A DNA stretch of 64,000 nucleotides from an uncultured Bacteroidales bacterium (GCA_944326355.1 CALVDO010000006.1:16163-80162), one strand, 5' to 3'. Shown: positions 3,459 through 63,763, numbered from the stretch's first letter. Notes: generated by a model from the sequence alone, not told the origin. Made by a program: numbers and translations.

Positions 3459-3471
3459 CTCTGCAAAATTT

Positions 3472-3657
3472 TCAGTTCCACTCTTGCTCATTGGAAAAAT
3501 CAAAAATGTTTTCCGTGTCCACCTGCTGATCTTGTATTTTCAGCGACTCGGTGTTTTCCGGCTTCTCATACACGGAGGCGGCCATAAACCCGTTCTCCAC
3601 CTCGACTTCCGTGCGGAAGGTCTGAGGCTTTTCATAATGATTCTTTTTCATACGCAT
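3472..3657 (-). CDS. small acidic hypothetical protein (61 aa)
   Basis: ATG at 3657 (alternative 3651) inside track ORF 3472..3804. The sequence is MRMKKNHYEKPQTFRTEVEVENGFMAASVYEKPENTESLKIQDQQVDTENIFDFSNEQEWN, with no signal peptide. It sits 19 nt after the wzc stop and 13 nt before the next start. Only the packing supports it as coding. Confidence 0.3.
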   Translation of the reverse strand: MRMKKNHYEKPQTFRTEVEVENGFMAASVYEKPENTESLKIQDQQVDTENIFDFSNEQEWN

Positions 3658-47366: not shown

Positions 47367-48221
47367 TCATTCGGCGCCGCATCTTTTCAGGAAACACTCG
47401 ATGGTATTCTCCATAAGGCAGCAGATGGTCATCGGCCCTACGCCTCCGGGAACCGGAGTTATGAGCGAGGCCTTCGGCTCAACCGCAGCGAAGTCCACAT
47501 CGCCGCAGAGCTTGCCGGTCTCAGGATCCCGGTTGACCCCGACATCTATCACAGCGGCCCCTTCAGCCACCATATCGGCAGTCACGAATCTCGGACGCCC
47601 GATGGCCACCACCAGAATCTCCGCCTGTCTGGTCAGTGAAGCGAGGTCCTTAGTGCGGCTGTGAGCGATCGTAACCGTAGCGTTCTCGTCCAGAAGCAGC
47701 TTCGCCACCGGAAGGCCCACGATATTGCTCCTGCCTATGACGACAGCACGTTTGCCGGCAATCTCCACTCCCGCAGTCTTAAGCATACGGATGATGCCTT
47801 TCGGAGTACACGGGAGCACGCACGGCTGCTTCTGCCACAGTGCCGCCACATTGAGAGGATGGAAGCCGTCCACGTCCTTCTCCTTTGCTATGGCTTCTAT
47901 TACCTTTGCCTCATTGATGTGCGCAGGCAAAGGAAGCTGCACAAGAATCCCGTCAACCCCGTCATCGGCATTAAGTCCGGCTATCATCTCCAGAAGCTCA
48001 TGCTCGGACACCGACTCCGGCATCCGCACAGTAGTGTTTCTTATCCCGACAGCCTCTGAAGCCTTGGCCTTACCCGTGACGTATGAGACGCTTGCGGGGT
48101 CATCACCGACAAGCACTACCACCAGATGCGGCACACGGCCGTATTTTTCAGGAAACGTGGCCACCTGAATGGCCATTTCCGCCTTCAGCCTCGCTGAAAG
48201 CTCTTTACCGCTTATGATCAT
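47367..48221 (-). CDS. folD: bifunctional 5,10-methylene-THF dehydrogenase / 5,10-methenyl-THF cyclohydrolase
   Basis: 284 aa. MIISGKELS..., LVVVLVGDDPASVSYV, GILVQLPLP, CTPKGI, AVVIGRSNIVGLPVA and PVPGGVGPMT. Confidence 0.9.
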   Translation of the reverse strand: MIISGKELSARLKAEMAIQVATFPEKYGRVPHLVVVLVGDDPASVSYVTGKAKASEAVGIRNTTVRMPESVSEHELLEMIAGLNADDGVDGILVQLPLPAHINEAKVIEAIAKEKDVDGFHPLNVAALWQKQPCVLPCTPKGIIRMLKTAGVEIAGKRAVVIGRSNIVGLPVAKLLLDENATVTIAHSRTKDLASLTRQAEILVVAIGRPRFVTADMVAEGAAVIDVGVNRDPETGKLCGDVDFAAVEPKASLITPVPGGVGPMTICCLMENTIECFLKRCGAE

Positions 48222-48243
48222 GTAAAATGTTTTAAATTCAGAT

Positions 48244-49515
48244 TCACTCCATCACTCTCCAGCCTATGTCCCTGCGCCAGAACAGATCGGCGCATCTTAT
48301 CTTCCCTACGGCCTCGAGAGCCTTGTCGTGAGCCTGACGGAGAGTGTCGGCGAAGCCTATGACCATAAGCACACGGCCTCCATTGACGCATGTCATGCCA
48401 TCCTTCATGGCCGTTCCCATGTGGTATATCCTCACGTCAGGATCGCTGAGGGCGTCCTCAAGACCTTCAATCGGACAACCCTTCCGATAAGATCCGGGAT
48501 AGCCCTTCGAAGCCATCACAAAGCCCATCGAAGCCCTGTCCGACCATACGAGCTCAGGCATCGGCGTGCCGTCGGCGACTGCCGAGAACACGTCATAGGC
48601 ATCCGTCTGAAGCAGCGGCAGCACGACTTCCGTCTCCGGATCTCCGAAACGGCAGTTGAACTCTATCACCTTTATGCCTGAAGGAGTCTTCATGAGTCCG
48701 CCGTAAAGCACTCCGCTGAACGGAATGCCCTCTGCGACCATCTCTCCGGCCACCGGCTTCATGATATGCTCGAGCGCATATTCCCTGTCCTCAGGAGTTA
48801 TGAACGGAAGCGGAGAATATGCCCCCATGCCTCCAGTATTGGGTCCCTTGTCTCCCTCGTATGCCCGCTTGTGGTCCTGCGAAAGGGCCATAGGCCATAC
48901 TTTCTCGCCATCCACAAAGCACATGAACGAGAATTCAGGTCCTGTCAGAAATTCCTCCACGACCACCTTGCCCTTGCCGAACCTGTCGTCCAGCAGCATG
49001 TCCTTCAATGCGGCTTCCGCCTCCTGCGGAGTCTCCGCTATCACGACGCCCTTCCCTGCCGCAAGACCGTCATACTTGAGCACCACCGGAAAAGAGCCCT
49101 TCATGACATGCTCATGAGCCTCGGCATAGTCCGAAAATGTCCTGTAGCCGGCGGTAGGCACTCCGCACTTGCTCATCAGCCTCTTGGCGAAGTCCTTGCT
49201 GGACTCTATCGCGGCTGCGGCCCGGGTCGGTCCGAAGATTCTGAGCCCGGCGGAGCGGAAGACGTCCGTGATCCCTGCGGCAAGGGCAGACTCCGGACCT
49301 ACAACTGTCAGATCGATGCCGTTGGCCAGAGCGAAATCCCTGAGGTCGTCCACCTGCACGTCCTTGACAGGAACGCACTCCGCCTGAGCGGCGATGCCGG
49401 CGTTTCCAGGAGCGCAATATATCTTTTCAACTTTCGGAGAACGCGACAGCGCGTCAACTATGGCATGACAGCGTCCTCCGCCGCCCACCACCAGAACTTT
49501 ATGTCCCATAGTCAA
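48244..49515 (-). CDS. purD: phosphoribosylamine--glycine ligase
   Basis: 423 aa. KVLVVGGGGRCHAI, PGNAG, VVLKYDGLAAGKGVVIA, VIEFNCRFGDPE and GGRVL. Confidence 0.95.
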   Translation of the reverse strand: MTMGHKVLVVGGGGRCHAIVDALSRSPKVEKIYCAPGNAGIAAQAECVPVKDVQVDDLRDFALANGIDLTVVGPESALAAGITDVFRSAGLRIFGPTRAAAAIESSKDFAKRLMSKCGVPTAGYRTFSDYAEAHEHVMKGSFPVVLKYDGLAAGKGVVIAETPQEAEAALKDMLLDDRFGKGKVVVEEFLTGPEFSFMCFVDGEKVWPMALSQDHKRAYEGDKGPNTGGMGAYSPLPFITPEDREYALEHIMKPVAGEMVAEGIPFSGVLYGGLMKTPSGIKVIEFNCRFGDPETEVVLPLLQTDAYDVFSAVADGTPMPELVWSDRASMGFVMASKGYPGSYRKGCPIEGLEDALSDPDVRIYHMGTAMKDGMTCVNGGRVLMVIGFADTLRQAHDKALEAVGKIRCADLFWRRDIGWRVME

Positions 49516-49566
49516 ATGTCAATTATAAATTATCGGCATCGTCCGGCTTCCGCCGGCAGAAATGTC

Positions 49567-51117
49567 TCAGTGCTTGAAGTGGCGGCTGCCGGTGAAGAGC
49601 ATCGAGATTCCGCACTCATCGGCCTTCGCTATCGAATCATTGTCCCTTATGCTTCCGCCGGGCTGTACGATGGACTTGACTCCATACTGCGCCGCAAGAG
49701 CCACGCAGTCGTCAAACGGGAAGAATCCGTCCGAGGCGAGCACCAGCCCCTCCTCCTCAATCTTCCTGCCACCTTCCGCGAGAGTTGCAGATGCCTGCTT
49801 CAGAGCTATTTCAGCCGAGCCGATTCGGTTCATCTGACCTGCGCCGACTCCGTATGTCATTCCGTTCTTCACCACCACAATGGCGTTGGACTTCACATGC
49901 TTGACTATTCTCCAGGCGAAATTGAGGTCGCTCATGTCTTCAGCGGCCGGAGCGGCTTTGGTGACACACATCGAAGGAGTTACAGTCTCTGTCACAAGAT
50001 CCTGATCCTGAACGAGAAGACCGCCATTGACACTCACATACTGGCTTCTCTCCCTTCCGTCTCTGGTCATGTCGACCTTCAGCAGACGGAGATTTTTCTT
50101 TGTGCGGAGAAGCTCGAGAGCCTCGTCAGAGAAGGACGGCGCCATGATTATTTCCAGAAACACAGGCTTCATGAGCTGCGCCGTCGCAAGGTCGATCTCG
50201 CGGTTAGTTGCGACGATGCCGCCGAAGATGCTCACCTTGTCGGCCTCGAAAGCCTTTTTCCACGCCTCGGTCACGTCTGCGCCTACGGCTGCCCCGCACG
50301 GATTCATGTGCTTGAGCCCCACGCAGAACGGCTCGTCAAACTCCCTTACGATGTTGAGAGCCGCATTGGCGTCCTGTATATTATTGTATGAAAGCTCCTT
50401 GCCATTGAGCTGCTCTGCCGATGCGAGAGAATACGGCTCCTTTTCCTGCGCCGCATAGAATTTGGCATGCTGATGAGGGTTCTCCCCATAACGGAGCGAC
50501 TGGAGAAGATCATATTCAAGAAAGAGCTTCTCGTTCAGCCCGGCCTGACGCCTCATGTAGGTGGCAATCATAATGTCATACTCAGCAGTATGGGTGTATG
50601 CCTTGGCGGAAAGCCTGAGTCTGGTCTCGGCAGAGACGGAACCGGATGTCTTCAGCTCGTCAATGACAATGTCATAGTCTTCAGGATGGCACACGACGGT
50701 GACGTCCTTCCAGTTCTTTGCCGCACTGCGGAGCATCGACGGGCCGCCTATGTCGATGTTCTCGATAGCGTCCTCCATTGTCACGTCCGGCCTTGATATG
50801 GTCTGACGGAACGGGTAGAGATTGACGCAAACGAGGTCGATGTATTCTATGCCGTTCTCGGCGAGTTCCCTGCGGTGGCTTTCGAGATCCCTGCGGCCGA
50901 GAAGAGCCCCATGCACTTTCGGATGAAGAGTCTTCACCCTTCCGTCACAGATCTCGGGAAAACCTGTTACCTCGCTGATGTTTATCACTTTAAGTCCCGC
51001 TTCCTGCAGGAGCTTCATCGTGCCTCCGGTGGCTATGATCTCCCAACCGAGGGACACGAGACGGCTGGCGAACTCCACGACGCCGGTCTTGTCACTTACT
51101 GAAAATAACGCTCTCAT
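49567..51117 (-). CDS. purH: bifunctional AICAR formyltransferase / IMP cyclohydrolase
   Basis: 516 aa. MRALFSVSDKTG (MGS domain), GRVKTLHPKVHG, IDIGGPSMLRSAAKN, LRYGENPHQ and QPGGSIRD. Confidence 0.95.
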   Translation of the reverse strand: MRALFSVSDKTGVVEFASRLVSLGWEIIATGGTMKLLQEAGLKVINISEVTGFPEICDGRVKTLHPKVHGALLGRRDLESHRRELAENGIEYIDLVCVNLYPFRQTISRPDVTMEDAIENIDIGGPSMLRSAAKNWKDVTVVCHPEDYDIVIDELKTSGSVSAETRLRLSAKAYTHTAEYDIMIATYMRRQAGLNEKLFLEYDLLQSLRYGENPHQHAKFYAAQEKEPYSLASAEQLNGKELSYNNIQDANAALNIVREFDEPFCVGLKHMNPCGAAVGADVTEAWKKAFEADKVSIFGGIVATNREIDLATAQLMKPVFLEIIMAPSFSDEALELLRTKKNLRLLKVDMTRDGRERSQYVSVNGGLLVQDQDLVTETVTPSMCVTKAAPAAEDMSDLNFAWRIVKHVKSNAIVVVKNGMTYGVGAGQMNRIGSAEIALKQASATLAEGGRKIEEEGLVLASDGFFPFDDCVALAAQYGVKSIVQPGGSIRDNDSIAKADECGISMLFTGSRHFKH

Positions 51118-51216
51118 TGACGCTCTATAATATTTATTTGATTTTCTGAAGATTCAGACAGAAACGGCATCCGGTCACAGCCCGACAGCCGACTCCGGTC
51201 CGGATGCGGCCCGATC

Positions 51217-52269
51217 TCAGATGATCCGTACTCCGGGCTCTGAAGTGACCCTTCCGATCACCGACGCAGTCTCTCCGTGTGAAGCGAGGATGGATATCAC
51301 CCTGTCTGCCTCGGCAGCATCGACGGCGAGCACCATGCCGATACCCATATTGAAGATGTTGAACATCTCCCTGTGAGCAATCTTACCGTATTTCTCAAGG
51401 AAACGGAATATCGGAAGGATCTCCCACGAGCCTTCCTTCACCTCGATTCCCTGCCCTTCTTTGAGTATCCTCGGGATATTCTCATCGAAGCCGCCTCCGG
51501 TGATATGGGCCACACCATGCACGTCGCAGCTGCGGATGACGTCGAGAACAGGCTTGACATATATCCTGGTAGGAGTCAGCGCCACCTCCCCGAGAATCCT
51601 CCCGTCGAGCTCCGGATAAGGAGCCCTGATGTCCAGTTCATTGTCCGCAAATATCTTGCGCACAAGGCTGAAGCCGTTTGAATGAATGCCCGAAGAGGCG
51701 ATTCCGACAAGCACGTCCCCCGCCTTTACCTTGCTGCCGTCTATGAGTCTGGACTTCTCCACTACTCCGGTAGTGAAGCCGGCGATGTCGTATTCTCCGT
51801 CCTCATACATTCCGGGCATCTCGGCAGTCTCTCCGCCGACAAGCGCACAGCCTGCCTGACGGCAGCCCTCGGCCACGCCCGAGACTATGGCCTCAATCTT
51901 GGCCGGCTCATTGTGTCCCACAGCCACATAGTCAAGGAAGAAGAGCGGCTCCGCTCCCTGAGCGAGAACATCATTGACGCACATGGCGACAGCATCAATA
52001 CCGATGGTGTCATGCCTGTCCATTGCGAAGGCGAGCTTGAGCTTCGTGCCGACGCCGTCCGTGCCGCTGACGAGCACCGGCTCCCGGACGTCAAGCGATG
52101 AAAGGTCGAACATTCCCCCGAACGAGCCTATGTTGCCCATCACACCCTTTCGTGACGTTGACGCCACATGACTTTTGATCCTGCGGACCACCTCGTAACC
52201 TGCCTCAAGGTTTACTCCCGCCTTTTCGTAACTGACTGCCATATTATTATAATGTATATGATTTTTCAA
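51217..52269 (-). CDS. purM: phosphoribosylformylglycinamidine cyclo-ligase (AIR synthase)
   Basis: [33 protein letters not shown] and GIHSNGFSL. The start is probably 52242 ([10 protein letters not shown]). Confidence 0.95.
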
Positions 52270-52432
52270 AATCCGCCATTCCGGCCGTTAAGACCGGTCT
52301 TCAGGCTGAGCTTTCCTTCCGCCCGGAGGTCTCTGCAGACGGTCTGCCGACACATCCTGCAAATATATTACTTTTCCATCACATTGCCATGACTCCGGCC
52401 GCTCTCTGCCGTTCTCTGCCAGCCCCGTGCAA

Positions 52433-53251
52433 TCAGGGGCGAGAAGTGTAGCTGAGCGCGGCGCCTATGGCCGTGCGGTATTCGGGATACTCGGGTATGT
52501 GCATCCTGATGTCATACAGGGCCTCTATCCTGTCGAAGAGAGGACGGCTCTGCGGGAGCAGGGGAAGATTGCCGATGAGCACGAAATCACGGACGGAAGT
52601 ACTGAACGCCACGAGATTGGCGGCACTGCCTATCGTCTGGAGAATCATGTTGACTATGCCTGCGGCGATGTCGTCGGGAGCCGCGTTGGCTTCCGCCTTT
52701 CCGAAATTTGACGCCGTCACCCCGTGCGGAAGTCCAGGAATCTCTACTCTGGAGATGTCCCGGATCTGGAGATCCACTCTGGACGTGTCTCCGCGCATGG
52801 CCATATTGACCACATGGCTGATGTCATGCGAATGGAAAAGCACTCGGGAAAGTCCCTGAAGCGTGCCTCCTCCTATCGCCATACCTCCGATATGCTCGAT
52901 GTCGTCTCCGTCAACCCTTATGAACGACGTGCCGGTGCCCATGCTCACGACGATCATCCTGCTGAGCCCGCTGCGGAACTTCGCGCCGAGAGCATTCGCC
53001 AGGAACTCGTCCGTACGCGCTGTCGGAAGACCGTAGAGACTGCCCTCGACATAGGCGCTGCCCACTCCGGTGAGCATGACCTGCTCGACATCCTCGAGAT
53101 CTATCTGATTATCATAAATATATTTGCCGAAAGCTCCGAACAGGGAAGTTATCGGATCCGCGGCCGTGATGAACTGGGGCGACTTCACTTCGCCGTCCTC
53201 GATTCCCACTATCTTCGTGGTACTTCCGCCCACGTCTATTCCTATGACCAT
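52433..53251 (-). CDS. type II pantothenate kinase-like ASKHA kinase (CoaW-like)
   Basis: 272 aa. By-eye alignment to my recollection of Staphylococcus CoaW finds MVIGIDVGGSTTKIVG, VSMGTGTSF, IGGMAIGGGTLQGL, MAMRGDTSRVDLQIRDI, VTASNFG and AIGAAL, all in the same order. Confidence 0.6.
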   Translation of the reverse strand: MVIGIDVGGSTTKIVGIEDGEVKSPQFITAADPITSLFGAFGKYIYDNQIDLEDVEQVMLTGVGSAYVEGSLYGLPTARTDEFLANALGAKFRSGLSRMIVVSMGTGTSFIRVDGDDIEHIGGMAIGGGTLQGLSRVLFHSHDISHVVNMAMRGDTSRVDLQIRDISRVEIPGLPHGVTASNFGKAEANAAPDDIAAGIVNMILQTIGSAANLVAFSTSVRDFVLIGNLPLLPQSRPLFDRIEALYDIRMHIPEYPEYRTAIGAALSYTSRP

Positions 53252-53308: not shown

Positions 53309-55474
53309 TCAGAACTTTCCGTCCTTGTTGGCGTCTTCGACGGCCTGATACAGATCCGTCGGATACCGGCCGTTGAAACATGCAGTGCACATGTCCTGCC
53401 GATGCCCCGCCCTGAACAGCGCATCTTCAGAGAGAAACGCGAGCGAATCTGCGCCTATGGCCTCACGGGCCTCATCGACTGACCGTCTTGCGCAGAGAAG
53501 CTCATCATAGGTGGATATGTCCACCCCGTAGAAACACGGCATCCTGATGGCCGGGCTCGCGATGCGCAGATGCACCTCCAGTGCCCCCGCCTCCCTCAGC
53601 ATCGTCACTATCCTGCGGGAAGTAGTCCCCCTGACGATGGAGTCGTCCACCAGCACCACCCTCTTGCCTCTGACTATCGTCTTTACGGCGGAGAGTTTCA
53701 TCCTGACGCCCTTCTCGCGCATCGACTGCGAAGGCTGGATGAATGTCCTTCCGATGTACTTGTTCTTTATCAGTCCCATCTCATAAGGAAGGCCGCTCGC
53801 CTCGCTGTAGCCCATCGCCGCACTGAGGCTCGAATCCGGCACACCCACCACGATGTCGGCGTCCGCGGGAGCTTCCTCAAACAGCAGCCGTCCGCTCTCT
53901 TTCCTGAAACTGTGGACGTTGCGCCCCTCGATATCGCTGTCGGGCCGGGCAAAATATACATATTCCATAGCGCACATCGCGTTGCGCCGGTATTCGGAAT
54001 ACTTGCGGCTCCTGAGTCCATGACCGTCAATGGTTATTATCTCTCCCGGCTCGACGTCCCGCAGAAATTCCGCCCCTATGACATCAAAGGCGCAGGTCTC
54101 GCTGCTGAGCACATACCCGTTTCCGAGCCGTCCTATCGAAAGCGGACGCAGGCCATATTTGTCCCTGCAGGCATATATACGGTTCGATGTCATTATGATG
54201 AAAGCGAATGCCCCCTCGATCATGTTCAGAGCCTCGGTGATGGCGAAGATTCGCGGCTTGCCGGACGATTCCTTCTTGATCAGATGGGCAAGTATCTCGC
54301 TGTCCGAAGTCGACTGGAACAGGCTGCCCCTGTTCTCAAGAAAACGCCTCAGAGGCGCCGAATTGACGAGGTTGCCGTTATGCGCCAGAGCGAAATCCCC
54401 GGTGTTGTGGCGGAAGAGGAATGGCTGCACGTTCTCGATTCCGCCTCCGCCAGTCGTCGAGTAGCGCACATGTCCTATGGCCATGTTTCCCTTCAGGCCG
54501 GCAAGACGCTCCTCATTGAACACCTCGGACACGAGCCCTTCTCCCTTGATCCGCTTCAGAGTGCCTCTCTCGTCGGCAGTGACGATTCCGCAGCCCTCCT
54601 GCCCCCTGTGCTGAAGAGAATGAAGCCCGTAATATGTCAGTTCAGCGGCGTCCGGCACTCCATATACCGCAAACACTCCGCATTCTTCATGAAGTCCGTC
54701 ACCGCCATCGGGGTCTCTGAAAAACGGAGAGACCTTCAGAAGTCTTGAATATATCTCCCTGTATGCGTCGCCGACCTTTCCCATGTCCCGGCGAAACCTG
54801 TCCCTGTCCAGCCGCTCGCCTGTGGCAATGTCCCAGAGTCGGGCATTGTCAGGTGTGATGCAGTCCGACAGGAGGATGCTTCCGTCGGGCAGACGCCCGA
54901 ATTCGAGCTTGAAGTCTATCAGATCGATGCCGATGCTCTTGAACAGAGGAGTAAGAATCGAATTGATCTGCCCGGCCTGCGAATACATTTCCTGCAGTTC
55001 GCCGTAGCCGGCAATGCCGAGGGCCACGGCATGATGGTCGTTGATGAGAATGTCATCAGCACCCTCGCGCTTGAGATTGAGGTCGAAGATGACGTTCCCG
55101 GGTCTCACCCCTTCCTCAATCCCGAGTCTCCGCGCCATGGAACCGGCTATCGCGTTGCGAACAATCACTTCGACAGGAACAGGCTCTGTCCTGAGGCACA
55201 GCTGCGAGTCGGATGAAATGACTCTGATGAAGGGGGTCTTCACCCCGCCGTTCTTGAGATGTCCGGCCACCATTGCGGCCACGGCATTGTTGATCCTGCC
55301 CTTGCCTGCGATCTTCGCCTTCTTTATCATGCCGTATGCGGTGATGTCGTCAGTAAACGTCACGACCTCCGTCGAGGAATCGTCGCCTTCATATACCCTC
55401 ATCGACATTTCGTCACGCAGAATCCGGCCGCCGGCATCCTGTCTCAGCCGTTCTCCCGTATCCAATCCATTCAT
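53309..55474 (-). CDS. purC-purF: fusion protein: SAICAR synthase (PurC, ~aa 1-248) + propeptide-type amidophosphoribosyltransferase (PurF, from Cys265)
   Basis: This is a single uninterrupted 721-aa ORF. PurC blocks are PVEVIVRNAIAGSMARRLGIEEG, IDFKLEFG, PDNARLWD and DRDRFRRDMG. PurF blocks are GLHEECGVFAVYG, YYGLHSLQHRGQEGCGIV, the PRTase motif VVLVDDSIVRGTT, and the Fe-S Cys residues CFYGVD / CTACFNGRYP. Confidence 0.85.
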   Translation of the reverse strand: MNGLDTGERLRQDAGGRILRDEMSMRVYEGDDSSTEVVTFTDDITAYGMIKKAKIAGKGRINNAVAAMVAGHLKNGGVKTPFIRVISSDSQLCLRTEPVPVEVIVRNAIAGSMARRLGIEEGVRPGNVIFDLNLKREGADDILINDHHAVALGIAGYGELQEMYSQAGQINSILTPLFKSIGIDLIDFKLEFGRLPDGSILLSDCITPDNARLWDIATGERLDRDRFRRDMGKVGDAYREIYSRLLKVSPFFRDPDGGDGLHEECGVFAVYGVPDAAELTYYGLHSLQHRGQEGCGIVTADERGTLKRIKGEGLVSEVFNEERLAGLKGNMAIGHVRYSTTGGGGIENVQPFLFRHNTGDFALAHNGNLVNSAPLRRFLENRGSLFQSTSDSEILAHLIKKESSGKPRIFAITEALNMIEGAFAFIIMTSNRIYACRDKYGLRPLSIGRLGNGYVLSSETCAFDVIGAEFLRDVEPGEIITIDGHGLRSRKYSEYRRNAMCAMEYVYFARPDSDIEGRNVHSFRKESGRLLFEEAPADADIVVGVPDSSLSAAMGYSEASGLPYEMGLIKNKYIGRTFIQPSQSMREKGVRMKLSAVKTIVRGKRVVLVDDSIVRGTTSRRIVTMLREAGALEVHLRIASPAIRMPCFYGVDISTYDELLCARRSVDEAREAIGADSLAFLSEDALFRAGHRQDMCTACFNGRYPTDLYQAVEDANKDGKF

Positions 55475-55632: not shown

Positions 55633-58600
55633 TCAGTTGCCTCTGAAATACCTTACGGCATTGTCAAATATCGGCTGCTCGAGTTCCTCCTCAATGTTCC
55701 GGAAGAGGTTTGGCTCGTACCTTTCGGTGTGTCCCATCTTGCCGAGGATCTGGCCGTCAGGACTCACTATGCCCTCTATCGCATAGTATGAGCCGTTCGG
55801 ATTGTAAGGGGATGTCATCGTCACCTCTTCAGCGACCGGGTCCACATATTGGAAAGCCACCTGGCCATTTGCAAACAGCTCTCTCGCAAGATCCTCATTT
55901 ACGACGAACTTGCCTTCGCCATGACTGACGGCCACCGTGTGCAGGTCTCCGACGGAGAATCCCGCGAGCCACGGAGAGTTGACGGAAGCCACCCGCGTCG
56001 TGACCATCTGGGATATGTGTCGGTTGATGTCGTTTCTGAACAGCACCGGAGAATCCTTCGTCACCATCCCGAGCCTTCCGTACGGCAGGAGTCCCGACTT
56101 CACGAGGGCCTGGAATCCGTTGCAGATGCCGAGGATGAGGCCTCCTCTGTCGAGGAGCTTATGTATTTCATCAGCTATATCCTTATTATTTAATACATTA
56201 GCTATAAACTTACCGCTACCGTCCGGCTCGTCTCCGGCAGAGAAGCCGCCGCACAGAGCAAGGATGTGGCACTCCGATATGTTCTTCTTCATCTCCGTTA
56301 TCGAGCTGAAGATGTCTTCAGCCGTCAGATTGCGGAAAACGCTCATCTTCACCTCAGCTCCGGCCTTACGGAAAGCCTTGGCGGTGTCGTAGTCACAGTT
56401 TGTGCCCGGGAACACGGGCAGATAGGCGAGAGGCCTCTCCACGGGTTCTCCCTTGTATCTCATCTCCGACCTCTTTCTCTTAAGCGGCCGCACCGTCTCC
56501 ATTCCCGAAGGCGCCACATCCGGATGGAAAGGCTCCTTTGTATCCGGGTATATCGAGGCGAACTTCACGGCGTTGGCCTCCATCATGTCGAAGATCGGAA
56601 CGGCAGTACCGTTGATGTGGAGCATTCCGTCCTCTCCGGAAGTGACTTCCCCGAGACATTCGGCGGCAGGATGGTCAAGAGGCTTCTCACATTCCACGAG
56701 AATCGATCCATAGCCATAGTTGAAGAGGTCATTCTCCGACACTTTGACATTGACTCCGAATGCGTTGCCGAACGACATCTTGCAGATGGCCTCTGCCACT
56801 CCGCCGAAGCCTATCGCATAGGCGGCCACGATATTGCCCGAGAGAATCTGCTCATGCACATATCTGAAGTTCTCCTTGAGCTGCGCCGTATCCGGCATAC
56901 GGTTCTTCAGAGGGGTGTGCCTTATGAGATAGAGTTTGTCACCGTCCCACTTGAGCTCCGGCGAGATCACTTTCCCGGCATTTACCGTGGTTATTCCGAA
57001 TGCCATGAGCATCGGGGGCACATTGATGTGTCCGAATGTGCCGCTCATTGAGTCTTTCCCGCCGATGGAAGGCAGTCCGAGCTCCACCTGCATCCTGATG
57101 GCGCCGAGAAGGGCGCTCAGCGGCTTGCCCCACGACTTCCTGTCGTGCATTCTTTCGAAGTATTCCTGATACGAGAATCTCATCTTCTCGTATGACGCTC
57201 CGGCTGACACTGCCTTTGCGCAAGCCTCCACAACGGAATATGCGGCTCCGTGGTAAGGACTCCAGGACGATATGTAAGGATTGTAGCCGAAGGTCATGAC
57301 GCTTGCCGTGTCGGTATAGCCGTCGGTCGGCAGCTTCTGGACTGATACCTGAGTCTCCGTAGTCTGCAGCAGTCCCCCGAACGGAAGCAGGACGGTGGAG
57401 CGCCCGACAGTTGAGTCGAACATCTCGATCAGCCCCTTCTGCGAGGTGACATTCCAGTCCTTGAGGTTGTTCTCCAGCCTCTGAGCGAGGGTGTCTCCCT
57501 CCACTTTCCTTTCAAACGGATCGATGTCAGGAACTGCGGAAACGGTGACGTCGGCGTAATGCTTCGCTCCAGCGCTGTCAATGAATTCACGAGAAAGGTC
57601 CACGATGAGCTTCCCCGCATTGTACATTCTGAGCCGTGCCGTGTCCGTGACGTCAGCCACATGTGTGACTTCGACATTTTCACTTGCGCAGAATGCCTTG
57701 AAGGCATCCATGTCGCCGGCCTCGACCACAACTGCCATCCTCTCCTGCGACTCGCTGATGGCAAGCTCGGTGGAGTTGAGTCCGCTGTACTTCACCGGCA
57801 CGCGGTCGAGATATATGTCGAGCCCGTCCGCAAGCTCGCCTATCGCCACGCTCACACCTCCTGCTCCGAAGTCATTGGACTTCTTGATGAGCCTGGTGAC
57901 TTCCGGCCTGCGGAAAAGCCTCTGCAGCTTTCTCTCCTCCGGAGCATTACCCTTCTGCACCTCGCTCCCGCAGGTCTCGAGGGAGGCCTCGGTGTGCTCC
58001 TTGGATGATCCTGTTGCGCCGCCGATGCCGTCGCGCCCGGTGCGTCCACCCAGAAGCAGGATCACGTCGCCCGGGGCAGGGCTCTCCCTGCGCACGTTCT
58101 CGGCCTTTACCGCACCGGCTACCGCACCCACCTCCAGACGCTTTGCCACATAGTCCGGATGATAGATCTCCCTGACATGGGTAGTGGCCAATCCTATCTG
58201 GTTGCCATAGCTGGAATATCCTGCGGCGGCCTTGCGGCTGATGACTTTCTGAGGCAGCTTGCCCGGCATGGTGTCGGACACCTTCTGATATATGTTTCCC
58301 GCTCCGGTGACACGCATTGCCTGATAGACATAGCTCCTTCCGGAGAGCGGGTCCCTGATGGCGCCTCCCAGACAGGTGGCAGCGCCTCCGAACGGCTCGA
58401 TCTCGGTAGGATGGTTGTGCGTCTCGTTCTTGAACTGAAGCAGCCATTTCTCTATCCTTCCGTCCACATCCACATCCACATATATGCTGCAGGCATTGTT
58501 CTCTTCGCTCACCTCCATGTCGTCAAGAAGGCCCCTGGACTTGAGATAGCGTGCTCCTATAGTAGCCATATCCATGAGATTGAGCCCCTTACCCTCTCTT

Positions 58601-59373
58601 CCGAGCTCGCTCCGCATCTTCAGATACATATTGAACGTCCCTTCAAGATCCTCCCTTATGAAGGAGTCCTCGAAGACGACGTCCTGAAGTTCGGTCGTAA
58701 ATGTCGTATGGCGGCAGTGGTCGCTCCAGTATGTGTCCAGAATCCTCAGTTCGGTCTCATACGGGTCGCGTCCCTCTCTGCGGAAGTAGCCGACCACCTC
58801 CCGGAGGTCATCGGCGTTCATCGCCAGCCCCATCGCGGAACAGTATGGAGCAAGATCCTCCTCCTTCATGGAAGTGAAGCCCTCCAGAACCGCTACCGGC
58901 TTCACCGGGGCCTGCTCCATGTCGCTGAGTACGGAAAGGTCCTTCTCGCGCGACTCCACCGAATTGATTGTGTATCGCCTTATCTTCTCAAGCTCCACGT
59001 CCGTCACCTCAGGGCCGAAGATCAGAAGTCTCGAGCTCTTTATGCGCACATCGGCCTTCGGATCAATCAGTCTCACGCAGTCGACCGCAGAAGCCGCCCT
59101 CTGGTCAAACTGCCCCGGAAGATACTCCACGGCGACATACCTGCATCCCGACAGGTCGCATTCATCCGTCACCCTGTCGGTCACGATCTCGCCGAAGACA
59201 CTGTAGCGGCTCTTTTCCAGAAGCTCCGGAGTGAAGCCGAAAAGGTCATAGACATTAAGCAGACGAAGACTTTTGAGCGAGAGCTGGAGATTCTCGTTCA
59301 GCTCATCCTTCAGACTCCTGGCTTCCACCTGAAACTCAGGATATTTTTCTACAAAGACACGGTAATTGCCCAT
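55633..59373 (-). CDS. purL: phosphoribosylformylglycinamidine synthase, single-chain large form (PurS-like + PurL + PurQ glutaminase domains)
   Basis: The start at 59373 gives MGNYRVFVEK. NETHNHPTEIEPFGGAATCLGG, two AIRS-like repeats, and a C-terminal GATase (GICNGFQAL, HGEG) are present. The protein is about 1246 aa. Confidence 0.95.
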   Translation of the reverse strand: MGNYRVFVEKYPEFQVEARSLKDELNENLQLSLKSLRLLNVYDLFGFTPELLEKSRYSVFGEIVTDRVTDECDLSGCRYVAVEYLPGQFDQRAASAVDCVRLIDPKADVRIKSSRLLIFGPEVTDVELEKIRRYTINSVESREKDLSVLSDMEQAPVKPVAVLEGFTSMKEEDLAPYCSAMGLAMNADDLREVVGYFRREGRDPYETELRILDTYWSDHCRHTTFTTELQDVVFEDSFIREDLEGTFNMYLKMRSELGREGKGLNLMDMATIGARYLKSRGLLDDMEVSEENNACSIYVDVDVDGRIEKWLLQFKNETHNHPTEIEPFGGAATCLGGAIRDPLSGRSYVYQAMRVTGAGNIYQKVSDTMPGKLPQKVISRKAAAGYSSYGNQIGLATTHVREIYHPDYVAKRLEVGAVAGAVKAENVRRESPAPGDVILLLGGRTGRDGIGGATGSSKEHTEASLETCGSEVQKGNAPEERKLQRLFRRPEVTRLIKKSNDFGAGGVSVAIGELADGLDIYLDRVPVKYSGLNSTELAISESQERMAVVVEAGDMDAFKAFCASENVEVTHVADVTDTARLRMYNAGKLIVDLSREFIDSAGAKHYADVTVSAVPDIDPFERKVEGDTLAQRLENNLKDWNVTSQKGLIEMFDSTVGRSTVLLPFGGLLQTTETQVSVQKLPTDGYTDTASVMTFGYNPYISSWSPYHGAAYSVVEACAKAVSAGASYEKMRFSYQEYFERMHDRKSWGKPLSALLGAIRMQVELGLPSIGGKDSMSGTFGHINVPPMLMAFGITTVNAGKVISPELKWDGDKLYLIRHTPLKNRMPDTAQLKENFRYVHEQILSGNIVAAYAIGFGGVAEAICKMSFGNAFGVNVKVSENDLFNYGYGSILVECEKPLDHPAAECLGEVTSGEDGMLHINGTAVPIFDMMEANAVKFASIYPDTKEPFHPDVAPSGMETVRPLKRKRSEMRYKGEPVERPLAYLPVFPGTNCDYDTAKAFRKAGAEVKMSVFRNLTAEDIFSSITEMKKNISECHILALCGGFSAGDEPDGSGKFIANVLNNKDIADEIHKLLDRGGLILGICNGFQALVKSGLLPYGRLGMVTKDSPVLFRNDINRHISQMVTTRVASVNSPWLAGFSVGDLHTVAVSHGEGKFVVNEDLARELFANGQVAFQYVDPVAEEVTMTSPYNPNGSYYAIEGIVSPDGQILGKMGHTERYEPNLFRNIEEELEQPIFDNAVRYFRGN

Positions 59374-59414
59374 ATATGTGTGTTGACTTGTTTTTTCAAT
59401 TTTCAGCAGCCGCG

Positions 59415-60674
59415 CTATACGAATCTCGAGGCCCACTCTGAATAATATTTCTCCGGAGTCATCGGCACGAAGGTCACATGACCCATCTTTCTCCTCGGAC
59501 GGGACTGGGTCTTGCCGTAGAGGTGCACAAACACTCCCCTTCCCGCTTCTCCGCAGAAAGCGTTGTCCACATCCTCCGGAGACGAGACCTCTATTCCAGG
59601 CCCCGCGCCTCTCAGAGATTCCGCCACAATCCGTTTCGCGGCGTCAAGATCCTGTCCGAGAATGTTCTTCATCACAGTCGGGGCGACAAGCTCCGGCCTG
59701 GTCAGAGGCATCCCGAGCAGAAAGTGGCAGAGCTCTCTGTATTGGCTTGTCGTGCAGCCTTCTATCGTATAATGCCCGCTGTTGTGCGGTCTCGGAGCCA
59801 TCTCGTTGAAGAGAAAGTCATCCCCCTTTATGAAAAGCTCAATCGCAAGAATCCCCCTGTAGCCGCAGCTTCTCATGAACGATTCGCAGGCCGAGACTAT
59901 CCTGCGGCAGGTCCCGTTCTCCTCCCCGTTCCTCTGAAGACCGGATGCCGGCACTATGCTCAGGTCGAGAATCCCGTCCCTGTGCACGTTTCTCGCGAGA
60001 GGGAAATGGATTATATCCTGTCCGTCGGAGACCATTATCACGCTCGCCTCGAAGTCGAAATCGACCATCTCCTCCAGAATGCACGGCACGGCAAGCAGGT
60101 CGGCGGCCTTTTCTATGTCCTTGAAGTCACGGATCACTGCCTGACCATGCCCGTCATAGCCGAATTTTCTCGTCTTGAGCACGCACGGCTTTCCCATACG
60201 GCCCACAGCGGAGGCAAGCTGCACAAGCCTCTCCTGAGGCGAAAGGGCGGCAGCCTCCTCTTCCGTCATCGGCTCGGCGGCAGAAGCGGCGAGAGCGCCC
60301 ATCCTGACCGGTAGCGCGGCATATTCCGGAGTCGGCAGCCCGTGAAGACGGGCATTGTCCTTCTCCCTCAGCCTGTCCTGTGAGTCGAACAGGGGTGCTA
60401 TACCCTGAGGGATGTCATACTTCGACTCGATATGCCGCAGCACCTCACCGGGGATGTTCTCAAACTCGTAGGTGATGACGTCTGAACTCTCTCCGAGACG
60501 CTCGAGCGCCTTCAGGTCATCGAACGCGCCGACTATCTTCGCGTCGGCCTCGGCAAAAGCCGGAGCATCGGCGGACGGATCCATGACGACCACCGACGCG
60601 TCGAGACGGTGAGCTTCCTGAGCTATCATGAGCCCAAGCTGCCCGCCGCCTATTATTCCTATCCTTTTCTTCAT
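59415..60674 (-). CDS. purK: N5-carboxyaminoimidazole ribonucleotide synthase (ATP-grasp)
   Basis: IGIIGGGQLGLMIAQEA, YEFENIP, CVLKTRKFGYDGHGQ, NEMAPRPHNSGHYT and RKMGHVT. It carries an extra Ala/Glu-rich insert. Confidence 0.9.
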   Translation of the reverse strand: MKKRIGIIGGGQLGLMIAQEAHRLDASVVVMDPSADAPAFAEADAKIVGAFDDLKALERLGESSDVITYEFENIPGEVLRHIESKYDIPQGIAPLFDSQDRLREKDNARLHGLPTPEYAALPVRMGALAASAAEPMTEEEAAALSPQERLVQLASAVGRMGKPCVLKTRKFGYDGHGQAVIRDFKDIEKAADLLAVPCILEEMVDFDFEASVIMVSDGQDIIHFPLARNVHRDGILDLSIVPASGLQRNGEENGTCRRIVSACESFMRSCGYRGILAIELFIKGDDFLFNEMAPRPHNSGHYTIEGCTTSQYRELCHFLLGMPLTRPELVAPTVMKNILGQDLDAAKRIVAESLRGAGPGIEVSSPEDVDNAFCGEAGRGVFVHLYGKTQSRPRRKMGHVTFVPMTPEKYYSEWASRFV

Positions 60675-60682
60675 GAAGATGT

Positions 60683-61150
60683 CTATATCTCAGCCTTCAG
60701 CACCGTCTCCGTCTGATTCTCACGGAATTTCTCAAGCCTCCGGGCCACCTCCGGATCCTGTAGAGAGAGTATCGAGGCGGCTATCAGAGCGGCATTCTTC
60801 GCTCCGTTGATCGCCACCGTGGCCACAGGCACTCCGGCCGGCATCTGAACTATCGAAAGCAGGGAGTCCAGCCCGTTCAGGGCGCGGGACTTCACCGGGA
60901 CTCCGATCACCGGAAGAGTCGTCATGGCGGCCACCATGCCAGGAAGATGGGCGGCTCCGCCTGCCCCCGCGATGATGACGCTTATGCCCCTTTCCCTCGC
61001 AGTATGCGCATATTCATACATGAGGTCCGGCGTCCTGTGGGCGCTGACCACGCGCTTCTCATAGTCTATACCCAGTTCCCCGAGCATCTCCACCGCGCCG
61101 GACATCACTTCATAGTCGCTCGTGGAGCCCATTATGATCCCTACTTTCAT
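60683..61150 (-). CDS. purE: N5-CAIR mutase
   Basis: The start at 61150 gives [36 protein letters not shown] and PVIGVPV are present. Confidence 0.9.
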
Positions 61151-61250
61151 ATTTCTGCAAAATCTTTGTGAATTTCCGCAAAAGTCCATACGAGTCAGAC
61201 GGTTGTGTCAGCCGTACATTTTCTCGGGAAAGCCTTTCGGCAAGCGATGG

Positions 61251-61317: not shown

Positions 61318-62235
61318 TCACCGCAGCCTGGAGACGAGGCTCTGCGGAAGAAGAGGCATGGCGCCCGACTGCGTGCAGACATACGCTGAGACCTCCACCG
61401 CCAGCCGATGCGCCTCAGCCATGTCCAGGCCTTTAAGCATGCCTGAGACAAACGCCGCCGTAAAAGAATCCCCTGCGCCGACAGTATCGGCCACCTCCAC
61501 CTTCGGAGTAGCAAGAGACGAGACGCCGTCCGGTCCGAACACATGACTTCCGTTCACCCCGCACGTCAAGATCAGCATCCTTATGCCGAATCTCTCGCGC
61601 AGCTCCCGGCATCTTTCCTCCGCGCCATCTTCCGCGTAATCCGTCGCGGCGCCTCCCCTGCCGTCTCCCGACAGGCCGAGAAGTCCGCCGACCACCTCCA
61701 GCTCCTCATCATTTATCTTCAGCACGTTGCACTTCATGAAAGAATCCTCCAGAATTTCCCTCGAATAGAAATTCTGCCGCAGATTGACGTCAAATATCTT
61801 GAGCGCGTCATCAGGCATCGCGTCCAGAAAGCGCCCGATCGTCTTCCTCGAGACCGCTCCCCTCTGAGCGAGAGAGCCGAAGCAGACCGCCCGCGACTCC
61901 GAGGCAAGTGCCTCAAGAGCAGGAGTGTACGGAATGTTGTCCCATGCCGCCCCCTCCTTTATGTCATACCGCGGGATTCCGTCTCCTTCAAGAGTCACGC
62001 TCACCGTTCCCGTAGGATAAGGGACAGTCTCCACAAGGCATTTCAGTCCCTTCTCCCTGAATGTGTCGAGAATCTCTCGCCCGAGGTCATCTCTCCCCAC
62101 GGCGCTGGCCACACGGCCTTCAAGGCCGAACTGCGACACGTGATACGCGAAATTGGCCGGCGCTCCGCCGATTTTCCTTCCCTCGGGAAGCATATCCCAT
62201 AGAGCCTCCCCGATTCCTGTCACCAGATTCTTCAT
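61318..62235 (-). CDS. PfkB-family carbohydrate kinase (fructokinase-like)
   Basis: The start at 62235 gives MKNLVTGIGEALWDMLPEG. GGAPANFA is present, and the C-terminal motif is DTVGAGDSFTAAF. Confidence 0.8.
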   Translation of the reverse strand: MKNLVTGIGEALWDMLPEGRKIGGAPANFAYHVSQFGLEGRVASAVGRDDLGREILDTFREKGLKCLVETVPYPTGTVSVTLEGDGIPRYDIKEGAAWDNIPYTPALEALASESRAVCFGSLAQRGAVSRKTIGRFLDAMPDDALKIFDVNLRQNFYSREILEDSFMKCNVLKINDEELEVVGGLLGLSGDGRGGAATDYAEDGAEERCRELRERFGIRMLILTCGVNGSHVFGPDGVSSLATPKVEVADTVGAGDSFTAAFVSGMLKGLDMAEAHRLAVEVSAYVCTQSGAMPLLPQSLVSRLR

Positions 62236-62380
62236 TTTTACGAGATTTAATGTCTTAGCCATCTGACCCTCCGAACCACCTTCGCCCAGAGCCATCAGGC
62301 ATTTCCGCAGACAAACTTATATAAAATTCACAAAAAATTTACGACGGACAAAAATAAATGCTAACTTTGCCCCCACATAA

Positions 62381-62467
62381 GGAAAGATGCCGGAGTGGTC
62401 GATCGGGCCGCACTCGAAATGCGGTGAACGCGTAAGTGTTCCCAGAGTTCGAATCTCTGTCTTTCCG
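62381..62467 (+). tRNA. tRNA-Ser (anticodon CGA)
   Basis: Folded by hand. The acceptor stem is GGAAAGA/TCTTTCC, the D stem CCG/CGG and the anticodon stem CCGCA/TGCGG with loop CT-CGA-AA. A long variable arm (GAAC...GTTC) is present. The T arm is CAGAG-TTCGAAT-CTCTG and the discriminator is G. CCA is not encoded. Confidence 0.9.
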
Positions 62468-62605
62468 CAAAACTCGCGTAACCCACTGAGCCATAGCGAT
62501 TTACAAGAATCGGACAATAAAAACGGGACAGAGACGGGACATGCGAATTTTATTCATTCATTTTCTTTGTACAGAGCACTTTGCATTCTGTGCGAAGAAA
62601 AAAAA

Positions 62606-63763
62606 ATGAATATATTTCCTCCCACACGAGACATAGATTATATGCCGGCAAAGCTGTCTCAAGGCAAGGTCTGGTACATCTACTACTATGTCAAAGAGCC
62701 CTCCTCCAGAAAACTCAAGCGGTTTCGCATCAAGCTCGAGCGCTTCAAGACCAAAAAGGAGAAGAAGATTGCGGCTCAGATAATCATCAACAGGATCAAC
62801 GAGCAGCTCGCCCTCGGATGGAATCCGATAGTCGAGCAGGCTGCACCTAATTCCTACCATACGCTGCACGATGCACTTGACTCTTTCCTTTCGATAAAGG
62901 GAAGGGAAATGGAGGAAAACTCTATGCGGTGCTATCGTTCGTATGTCAAGTTTCTCAAGAAATGGCTCTCCGGAAAAGGATTCGACGAGAAGATGTATGC
63001 CTGCTCATTCTCCCGCCAGCTCGCGCTTGAGATCATGGACGACATAGATAATGACGAAAAGGTTTCTCCCCGGACATTCAACAACTACCTGATGTTCTAT
63101 CGGATTCTCTTCAACTGGATGGTCGACAAGGGGTACATCTCCGGAAATCCGTTTGAAGGCATAAAGAAGAAATCGAAGAAACTCACCCAAAAGACACGGC
63201 GGATCATGACCGATGATGAGCTGTCCCGCCTGTTCACTCATCTTCAGAGCGTCAACAGTCAGTACCTCGTCATCTGCCTGCTCTGCTACTGCTGCCTCAT
63301 GAGGCCGAAGGAAATAGCCCTGCTCAAATGCGGAGATGTGGACCTTGGACAGCAGCTCATCCATGTACGCGGAGAAATCGCGAAAAACGACAATGACTCA
63401 TACAGGACGATCCCGGATGACATGATGCCCTACATGAGGGAGCTTGACCTCTCGCATCCGGACTGGTATATTTTCGGGAGTCACCACGAATATGACTTCA
63501 GCCCCGGTCCGAAACAGATATGCAGCCGCAAGATAGCCAAATATTGGAGCGACCATCTGAGACACGACTGCGGGCTTCCGATGGAGCTGCAGTTCTATTC
63601 GCTGAAAGACACCGGAATCACCAATATGCTCGGCAGCGGCGTCCCCGTCTCATTCGTAAAGCAGCAGGCGGACCACAGCAGCCTCGCGATGACATCGATA
63701 TATCTCGGAAAACTTCAGGACAAAGCCAGCGAAGCAATCAGAAACGCAAATCTTATAAAATAA
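62606..63763 (+). CDS. tyrosine-type site-specific integrase (Bacteroidota Arm-domain type)
   Basis: The ATG at 62606 gives MNIFPP.... The N-terminal arm-type motif is KVWYIYYYVKEPSS..LKRFRIK. A SAM-like core-binding domain follows. The catalytic region is LLCYCCLMRPKEIALLK...YSLKDTGITNM...ADHSSLAMTSIYL (H...Y). Confidence 0.85.
   Translation: MNIFPPTRDIDYMPAKLSQGKVWYIYYYVKEPSSRKLKRFRIKLERFKTKKEKKIAAQIIINRINEQLALGWNPIVEQAAPNSYHTLHDALDSFLSIKGREMEENSMRCYRSYVKFLKKWLSGKGFDEKMYACSFSRQLALEIMDDIDNDEKVSPRTFNNYLMFYRILFNWMVDKGYISGNPFEGIKKKSKKLTQKTRRIMTDDELSRLFTHLQSVNSQYLVICLLCYCCLMRPKEIALLKCGDVDLGQQLIHVRGEIAKNDNDSYRTIPDDMMPYMRELDLSHPDWYIFGSHHEYDFSPGPKQICSRKIAKYWSDHLRHDCGLPMELQFYSLKDTGITNMLGSGVPVSFVKQQADHSSLAMTSIYLGKLQDKASEAIRNANLIK

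Follow-up and report, generated by a model that had tools for sequence, protein, structure and literature searches.

The stretch of DNA analysed here, a 64,000-nt window from an uncultured Bacteroidales bacterium (GCA_944326355.1 CALVDO010000006.1:16163-80162), contains a purine biosynthesis operon in which purC and purF are joined into a single open reading frame (ORF). The frame runs uninterrupted for 721 codons on the minus strand (53309..55474), as described in an earlier note made from the sequence alone, and its product carries a domain of the phosphoribosylaminoimidazole-succinocarboxamide (SAICAR) synthetase fold followed by a complete PurF. Briefly, the Pfam scan placed SAICAR_synt at residues 26-244 (E 9.5e-59), the class-II glutamine amidotransferase domains GATase_6/7 at residues 328-463 and Pribosyltran at residues 533-636. 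The linker SPFFRDPDGGDG and the LHEEC|GVFAVYG junction that follows it were both found in the sequence as the earlier note gave them, with the tgc codon of Cys265 at 54682..54680. An AlphaFold2 (AF2) model of the whole fusion, built from a 23-sequence alignment, reached a mean predicted local distance difference test score (pLDDT) of 63 and a predicted template-modelling score (pTM) of 0.40. The pLDDT is mostly 75-94 across the PurC domain and falls below 50 at residues 252-264, a low-confidence linker stretch between the domains. Only the PurC domain and the disordered linker of this model are interpretable.

On the evidence of its profile and alignment matches, the PurF half belongs fully to the Fe-S-type PurF family. 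The NCBIfam model TIGR01134 (purF) matches residues 265-705 over profile positions 1-432 of 432 with 533.7 bits (cut-off 350 bits), and profile position 1 falls exactly on Cys265. The half aligns Cys1-to-Cys1 with mature Bacillus subtilis PurF (1GPH/1AO0, E 8e-180). C265 of C265-GVFAVYG, which aligns to Cys1 of 1GPH, is invariant in an alignment of 23 fused and stand-alone proteins; H262, E263, G266, V267 and F268 are also invariant, and E264 is nearly so. The Asn-Gly and SDSE glutaminase motifs, the phosphoribosyltransferase (PRTase) loop VVLVDDSIVRGTT and the four Fe-S cysteines are invariant as well, in agreement with the earlier description of this half. The alignment to 1GPH pairs the four (C501, C647, C696 and C699) with cysteines of B. 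subtilis PurF in SICSMEY, HPCFYG and QCLACF that we take to be the Fe-S ligands Cys236, Cys382 and Cys437/Cys440. The ratio of nonsynonymous to synonymous substitution rates (dN/dS) of the PurF half is 0.01-0.05. Searches by tblastn with short-form, Escherichia coli and long-form PurC and with PurF found no second purC or purF in the 64-kb window. The features of the fused ORF and of the operon are collected in Table 1.

Table 1 Features of the purC::purF fusion and the surrounding pur operon, in positions of the window
Feature	Position	Strand	Basis
Fused purC::purF ORF, 721 aa, 79.5 kDa, stop codon included	53309..55474	minus	ORF list, sequence, domain scans, computed mass
PurC-like domain (SAICAR synthetase fold), residues ~16-250	54725..55429	minus	PF01259, 3NUA match, AF2, TIGR00081
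Degenerate P-loop equivalent RDEMSMR, residues 20-26; canonical PurC has YEGKAK(K/Q)	55397..55417	minus	Alignment by hidden Markov model to 3NUA; human PAICS site table
Linker and propeptide remnant SPFFRDPDGGDGLHEE, residues 249-264	54683..54730	minus	Sequence; AF2 pLDDT; alignment to L005
Predicted autoprocessing site LHEE|C, residues 261-265; Cys265 tgc 54680..54682	54680..54694	minus	Conservation; TIGR01134 position 1
PurF proper, residues 265-721, 50.5 kDa; N-terminal-nucleophile glutaminase and PRTase domains	53312..54682	minus	TIGR01134; 1GPH alignment
Cys501, Fe-S ligand (presumed B. subtilis Cys236 equivalent)	53972..53974	minus	1GPH alignment; invariant column
Cys647, Fe-S ligand (presumed B. 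subtilis Cys382 equivalent)	53534..53536	minus	1GPH alignment; invariant column
Cys696-x-x-Cys699, Fe-S ligands (presumed B. subtilis Cys437/Cys440 equivalents)	53378..53389	minus	1GPH alignment; invariant columns
Phosphoribosyl pyrophosphate-binding loop VVLVDDSIVRGTT, residues 606-618	53621..53659	minus	Pfam Pribosyltran; invariant columns
purE	60683-61189	minus	NCBIfam scan; upstream operon gene
purK	59415-60674	minus	NCBIfam scan; upstream operon gene
purL, single-chain	55633-59436	minus	NCBIfam scan; upstream operon gene
Type II pantothenate kinase	52433-53251	minus	NCBIfam scan; downstream operon gene
purM	51217-52269	minus	NCBIfam scan; downstream operon gene
purH	49567-51117	minus	NCBIfam scan; downstream operon gene
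purD	48244-49515	minus	NCBIfam scan; downstream operon gene
folD	47367-48221	minus	NCBIfam scan; downstream operon gene

The fusion is genuine, lies within the pur operon and is fixed in this species. A protein search covering 5.8 billion proteins returned an identical 721-aa protein whose 90%-identity cluster has 30 members. The 15 variants listed for this cluster measure 718-721 aa and come from many contigs of independent Logan, ENA and NCBI assemblies, and all 15 share the SPFFRDPD(G/D)GDGLHEEC junction. Amino-acid polymorphism within the species affects four sites in PurC and six in PurF, at a density about equal between the halves. Four ENA scaffolds and OZ007033.1, a complete HiFi chromosome of a metagenome-assembled genome (MAG), carry a fused orthologue of 82% identity (P0002/P0137) within the same operon. 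A separate group of fused proteins of 699-707 aa is present in Muribaculaceae and extends to a cultured isolate, Muribaculum sp. An289 (GCA_002159555.1; OUO36200.1; B5F83_09345), whose operon reads purE-purL-purC::purF-purM-purN-purH-purD and for which RefSeq keeps the full-length 698-aa protein (WP_239383857.1). The search of related genomes that the earlier note had called for recovered equivalent fusions in sister species, among them one on a HiFi chromosome and one in an isolate.

We considered whether a sequencing or assembly error, with a missed stop or an indel at the junction, could have produced the long frame. MAG sequences may contain indels, and the fusion is present in just one of the 80 GTDB species genomes closest to the query. 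Against such an error stand the identical junction of the 15 protein variants, seen across dozens of contigs that different studies produced, the equivalent fusions in the isolate and on the complete HiFi chromosome, and a difference between fused and split loci that is a clean 122-nt deletion and not a 1-nt indel. An artefact, frameshift or missed stop is rejected on these grounds, and the chance that it accounts for the fusion is negligible.

The PurC::PurF architecture is not unique to the window; it is already in public databases under the sole name 'amidophosphoribosyltransferase'. The earlier note knew of no characterised PurC-PurF fusion, and literature searches for such a fusion or for 'purCF' likewise gave nothing relevant. 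The annotation of these proteins varies. The fused proteins of the isolate (P0164/P0165, 698-700 aa) are named 'amidophosphoribosyltransferase' or 'hypothetical protein'. In two Candidatus Merdivivens MAGs (P0150 and P0166; MBO8464399.1 and MBO8481343.1), NCBI starts PurF at a Met inside the C-terminal helix of PurC (MGKVIEGY...), and the call from this internal Met hides the PurC part. In some split relatives (L066, L089 and P0019), the purF frame continues without a stop well upstream of purF and overlaps the 3' end of purC, which is read in a different frame; the over-long PurF ORFs that result (P0019, 645 aa) mimic partial fusions in gene calls.

Most relatives carry the same operon with purC and purF as two genes. 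The purC stop overlaps the purF start (ATGA) in the split loci L008 and L009, and a 36-nt gap separates the two genes in the split locus L005. The PurF propeptides of split relatives comprise 9-30 residues and end in (L/I)HEE|C where found; the distance from the last PurC helix to the Cys, 11-39 residues in every fused form, is comparable. The most direct comparison is between the fused locus L001 and L005, the DNA of which is 99.0-99.8% identical across ~13 kb. The span from the purC start to the purF stop is 122 nt shorter in L001, and the lost segment reaches from the purC tail and stop codon through the spacer to the purF start and takes in most of the propeptide. The linker of the window aligns to the junction of a ~120-nt deletion relative to L005, with a gap of similar size and another remnant (RDPDGGDG in the window versus EKG).

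The window fusion does not appear to descend from that of L001. The PurF half of the window shows 91% identity to fused L001 and equally to its split sister strains, and because of this equidistance the window fusion is most simply a separate event. Each PurF half of a fused protein has its nearest neighbour among split relatives, or lies at equal distance from split and fused proteins, a pattern that rules out a single origin for all fusions. One older monophyletic fused clade lies within the Muribaculaceae, and further fused lineages are represented by P0003, P0004 (Alistipes-type) and P0018, with unrelated PurC-PurF fusions in P0254 and P0214. By these sequence comparisons, at least six independent fusion origins are counted in total. 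The fusion is rare, recurrent and sometimes polymorphic within a species, and it is old and retained in one clade. All of the top 120 clusters of the Cryptobacteroides-type PurC are stand-alone proteins. In P0254 the PurF half has no Fe-S cysteines, and its junction reads KEEC|GV.

The 1:1 stoichiometry named in the earlier note finds little in its favor as an advantage. Translational coupling of purC and purF already exists in the split relatives, and alleles of both kinds, fused and split, are found in strains of 99% DNA identity; for both reasons we judge a stoichiometric adaptation unlikely and infer that the fusion is near-neutral, tolerated rather than selected.

The window holds a recently derived in-frame purC-purF fusion of a Cryptobacteroides-like gut bacterium, and we consider it probable that this fusion is tolerated through PurF self-processing. 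The GPRAT propeptides are described as 'autocatalytically cleaved', and Arabidopsis GPRAT2 made in E. coli exposes Cys87 (PMC7056826); MEROPS family C44 likewise files PurF-type enzymes as self-processing precursors (PMC5753285). A deletion of ~120 nt gave rise to it, taking away everything from the purC stop codon through the short spacer and the purF start codon to most of the PurF propeptide. In the proposed course of events, the Fe-S-type PurF, made as a self-processing precursor, would fold first, and the bond before the catalytic Cys (Glu264|Cys265) would then be cut autocatalytically, freeing the alpha-amino group required by the N-terminal-nucleophile (Ntn) glutaminase mechanism. The upstream part would merely be a longer leaving group. 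By the computed masses, the 79.5-kDa product would yield a 29.1-kDa PurC-like protein (residues 1-264) with a 16-residue C-terminal tail and a normal PurF of 50.5 kDa. The peptide CGVFAVYGVPDAAELTYYGLHSLQHR is the predicted semi-tryptic product of this cleavage, and DGGDGLHEECGVF is the stretch that would span an intact junction. By the Ntn mechanism, an uncleaved PurF should be without glutaminase activity, and for this reason we do not class the protein with the covalent multifunctional pur enzymes of the PAICS/GART type. The conserved junction, glutaminase residues and Fe-S cysteines make autoproteolysis at Glu264|Cys265 the most likely outcome, and the self-cleaving N-terminus of PurF may be the reason why in-frame deletions that join an upstream gene have been tolerated repeatedly.

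Several points weigh against this reading. Literature searches returned no experimental cleavage of any PurC-PurF fusion, and the extensions for which autoprocessing has been described are only short propeptides or unstructured. A 29-kDa domain that folds and oligomerises could sterically hinder assembly of the PurF tetramer before cleavage. The lineages of the window and of P0002 fused recently, and the site may have stayed conserved there by inertia rather than by selection; the age of the Muribaculaceae clade speaks against inertia, but its PurC half is more canonical. Finally, the PurF half of the AF2 model is poor (mean pLDDT 63) and gives no structural support for the geometry of the junction.

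Two alternatives concern what happens at the junction. The protein might stay uncleaved as a covalent bifunctional enzyme, its blocked Cys being no Ntn nucleophile and its PurF using free ammonia. PurF enzymes accept NH3 in vitro, gut and rumen habitats are rich in ammonia, and cleavage of the fusion is a prediction. We nevertheless hold this improbable, since no fused lineage shows a change in the glutaminase nucleophile, in the (L/I)HEE motif that precedes it or in the residues of the glutamine site, including the old Muribaculaceae clade with PurF halves diverged by up to ~16%, the dN/dS of the PurF half is very low, and the fused PurF is the sole purF in the operon and the window. Alternatively, translation might start internally, for instance at Met239 of RRDMGKV, giving a separate PurF precursor with a 26-residue propeptide, and PurF activity would then not depend on the long fusion product. 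In support, Met239 is a conserved residue of PurC, 26 residues falls in the natural range of 9-30 aa, and the NCBI pipeline picked this Met in the two Merdivivens MAGs. Inspection of the sequence by eye, however, revealed neither a recognisable signal for initiation nor any ATG, GTG or TTG codon in frame after Met239 and before Cys265, RefSeq retains the full-length isolate protein, and the shorter product would need the same autoprocessing anyway. An internal start is accordingly given little credence.

The PurC half presents a different picture. The earlier note called it a full SAICAR synthase, which holds for the fold and not for the active site. As judged from profile and alignment, the half is within the SAICAR synthetase fold family, yet it scores below the equivalog cut-off and lacks the canonical ATP loop. 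TIGR00081 (purC) gives the window half 161.1 bits with the first 14 profile positions unmatched; the equivalog cut-off is 189.9 bits, all six relatives scored alongside are higher (188-249 bits), and canonical fused homologues reach 217-249 bits. The earlier reading of GDDSS in place of GKAK after the conserved YEG was right in that the canonical GKAK is missing, but its register was wrong: hidden Markov model (HMM) and MAFFT alignments rule out YEGDDSS as the equivalent of YEGKAK. In the HMM alignment to Clostridium perfringens PurC (3NUA, E 3.7e-62, the best solved relative), DEMSMR (residues 21-26) corresponds to EGKAKK and TFTDD to HYKDD. The ATP-binding site of human PAICS includes Gly16, Lys17, Thr18 and Lys19, and ATP contacts Lys19, Asn43 and Lys131 (PMC9376930). 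At the positions of G16, K17 and K19 the window protein carries E, M and M, with T for K36 and G for N43, a more severe loss than the earlier reading implied. It retains the residues of the Mg, carboxyaminoimidazole ribonucleotide (CAIR) and aspartate sites, namely E97, K131, D137, K191, E193, D207, D212, R215, R101 and S107.

These changes reach beyond the fused protein. K17 is absent in 44 of 44 Cryptobacteroides-type operon PurCs, fused or not, K19 is absent in most, and the degenerate loop varies as G-[EVGTD]-S-[VIKYFM]. The PurCs that Alistipes/Rikenellaceae have at this place in the operon retain YEGKAK, and GKxK is near-universal among 150 diverse PurC representatives. From these alignments, the lysine loss is not peculiar to the fusion and is common to the whole Cryptobacteroides-type PurC clade. 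The ratio of PurC to PurF divergence is 2.25 in the degenerate clade versus 0.92 in the canonical Alistipes clade (~2.4 times faster). Further Mg or catalytic residues are lost in P0018 (E97H, K131H, D137N, E193Q), in L054/L069 (K131Q, E193Q) and also in L042. The PurC half is under purifying selection (dN/dS 0.06-0.14), and the degenerate-loop PurC is always in the purC slot of a full pur operon. The clade of short PurCs with the degenerate loop and T at K36 fills at least the top 120 clusters at 90% identity, one of them with 1328 members, and is represented at loci L001-L016, L029-L057, L069, L072, L083 and L085; all its members are annotated as ordinary purC.

Another form of the gene occurs in close relatives. 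A long-form, GKVRD-type purC (e.g., L084, MKAITKTDFNFPGQTARYTGKVRDVY...) accompanies PurFs that are 72-78% identical, and the arrangement differs from that of the window at loci L053, L056, L058-L065, L068, L071, L073, L080, L084, L086 and L088 and at L037. Most of these loci have purB and the long-form purC divergently upstream of purF, L053 has the long-form purC downstream of purF, and L037 reads purE-purL-purF with no purC between. These differing arrangements in close relatives imply that the lineage alternates between two types of PurC that are not orthologous. The L084 PurC, used as query in a protein search that was filled by close relatives, gave no long-form match assignable to operon-type genomes, and the two contigs checked for both PurC types contain the short purC only.

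Taken together, the sequence features leave two readings of the PurC half, which would be either a SAICAR synthetase with an unusual ATP loop or a non-catalytic partner of PurF. The release of PurC envisaged in the earlier note may thus be the release of a protein of uncertain SAICAR-synthetase activity. The second reading holds that the PurC-like half is a pseudoenzyme that serves as a PurF-associated pro-domain or regulator, for example through binding of CAIR/SAICAR-like ligands or as a folding or assembly chaperone. The fusion would then make a physical partnership formal, and the real PurC activity would come from a long-form purC elsewhere in the genome. It would explain E, M, M and G at G16, K17, K19 and N43, which are ATP-site positions in PAICS, the loss of K17 throughout the 44 PurCs and of K19 in most with a freely varying loop, where GKxK is otherwise near-universal, the additional Mg or catalytic losses of several lineages, and the raised PurC divergence. 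The window half is the most eroded (161 versus 189.9 bits), and close relatives use the long-form purC beside purF, or purE-purL-purF without a short purC. On the other side, no second purC lies in the 64-kb window and none was assignable to any operon-type genome; E97, K131, D137, K191, E193, D207, R215 and the CAIR-phosphate residues are kept, although Mg ligands would be needless in a pure pseudoenzyme; and purifying selection, the about equal density of within-species polymorphism in both halves, and the abundance of the clade, always in the purC slot, weigh against it. A pseudoenzyme is a possible but somewhat doubtful explanation.

A more specific form of it, in which the PurC-like half is a ligand-binding pseudoenzyme that acts as a cleavable pro-domain or a retained regulatory subunit of PurF and senses a CAIR/SAICAR-type intermediate, we regard as rather unlikely. 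If true, the first committed purine step would be controlled via a partner derived from another enzyme of the pathway, and the repeated fusions would be the genomic trace of a physical partnership between PurC and PurF. A human parallel for protein-partner control of PurF is the tethering of NUDT5 to PPAT by purine nucleotides (PMC13421311).

Comparison with known systems places the self-processing fusion among several partial relatives. The B. subtilis PurF precursor (MEROPS C44) shares the end-to-end alignment from Cys1, the four Fe-S cysteines, an acidic junction of the type EE|CGVFG and the dependence on a free Cys at the N-terminus. Its propeptide has 11 residues, whereas the segment before the Cys in the window has 264 and includes a whole folded enzyme domain. 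The split pairs of Candidatus Cryptobacteroides (Ca. C. merdavium MBO8445792.1/MBO8445793.1; L005, L008 and L029) share the operon, the short PurC with the degenerate P-loop and a PurF of 91-99.6% identity, and the likeness extends to adjacency and to genes that are translationally coupled. They differ in that purC and purF are distinct ORFs: purC has its stop codon, the gap between the genes measures 0-36 nt, and PurF begins at a start of its own with a short propeptide. The window is without ~120 nt there. The Muribaculaceae proteins, with that of Muribaculum sp. An289, share the PurC::PurF architecture, the IHEE|C junction and the position in the pur operon; their fusion is independent and older, and their PurC is near-canonical (EGKSKQ or EGQSKQ, 217 bits) and passes the purC cut-off. 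Arabidopsis thaliana GPRAT2 (6LBP) is a homologue of the Fe-S type (E 2e-137) with a long N-terminal extension and, when made in E. coli, an exposed Cys87 (PMC7056826). Its extension consists of a transit peptide and a propeptide with no second enzyme, and its processing may combine import cleavage and autoprocessing.

Mergers of neighbouring pur genes are also found in animal PAICS (PurC and PurE), GART (PurD-PurM-PurN), PurH and halobacterial PurN-PurH1, and PurC is a frequent fusion partner, with PurC-PurH (P0253, 714 aa) and PurB-PurC (P0289, 690 aa) also present in the representative library. Fusions of the PAICS and GART type stay covalent and often join consecutive steps, whereas here the C-terminal partner needs the bond broken and the steps are far apart. 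Penicillin G acylase, gamma-glutamyltranspeptidase and glycosylasparaginase are Ntn hydrolases that are autoprocessed at the bond before the nucleophile into two chains, and the fusion resembles them in having a large N-terminal polypeptide that is released or kept as a subunit. The N-terminal chain of those enzymes belongs to the same fold, and here it is an unrelated enzyme domain on a flexible linker.

The operon that surrounds the fusion is co-directional, in the order purE, purK, purL, purC::purF, pantothenate kinase, purM, purH, purD and folD, with the upstream genes spanning 55633..61189 and the downstream genes 47367..53251; the downstream order is also seen in relatives, of which the nearest named ones are Candidatus Cryptobacteroides MAGs (Bacteroidales incertae sedis). 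The pantothenate kinase between purF and purM is of type II (eukaryote/Staphylococcus-type, Fumble family; NF009842, 274.6 bits, cut-off 234). This kinase of the coenzyme A pathway occurs within a subset of the related purine operons only and in none of the Alistipes-type operons. The purK gene between purE and purL is shared with the P0002-type operon and is not at this position in L008, L009 or the Muribaculum operon (L090). Directly upstream of the operon lies a PfkB-family sugar kinase (61318-62295, minus), and a 458-aa tyrosine recombinase/integrase follows at 62387-63763 on the plus strand. The orthologous L001 locus has GntR and MFS genes instead of the integrase, which suggests a mobile-element insertion or a rearrangement boundary. 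Elsewhere the window encodes a SusC/SusD pair, a GH3 glycosidase and a locus for capsule or exopolysaccharide. Two ORFs of 852 and 433 aa (948-3503 and 13086-14384, both minus), in or beside the capsule or exopolysaccharide locus, showed no similarity to Pfam families at E <= 1e-5.

With a whole 29-kDa enzyme before the catalytic Cys, the fusion offers a natural test of the propeptide size that an Ntn amidotransferase can remove. Cleavage would be readable on a gel as a shift from 80 kDa to 29 and 50 kDa, one fused version is available in a cultured Muribaculum isolate, and the outcome would bear on whether processing is truly autocatalytic and whether insertion of the Fe-S cluster is needed. 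A self-cleaving N-terminus would make purF a permissive acceptor of upstream fusions. For genome annotation, naming these proteins for PurF only, or trimming them at an internal Met, conceals their PurC domain, and reconstructed pathways can be distorted as a result. The fast-evolving and abundant PurC clade of gut Bacteroidales without the ATP-loop lysines emerged as a side finding, and it may outlast the fusion itself.

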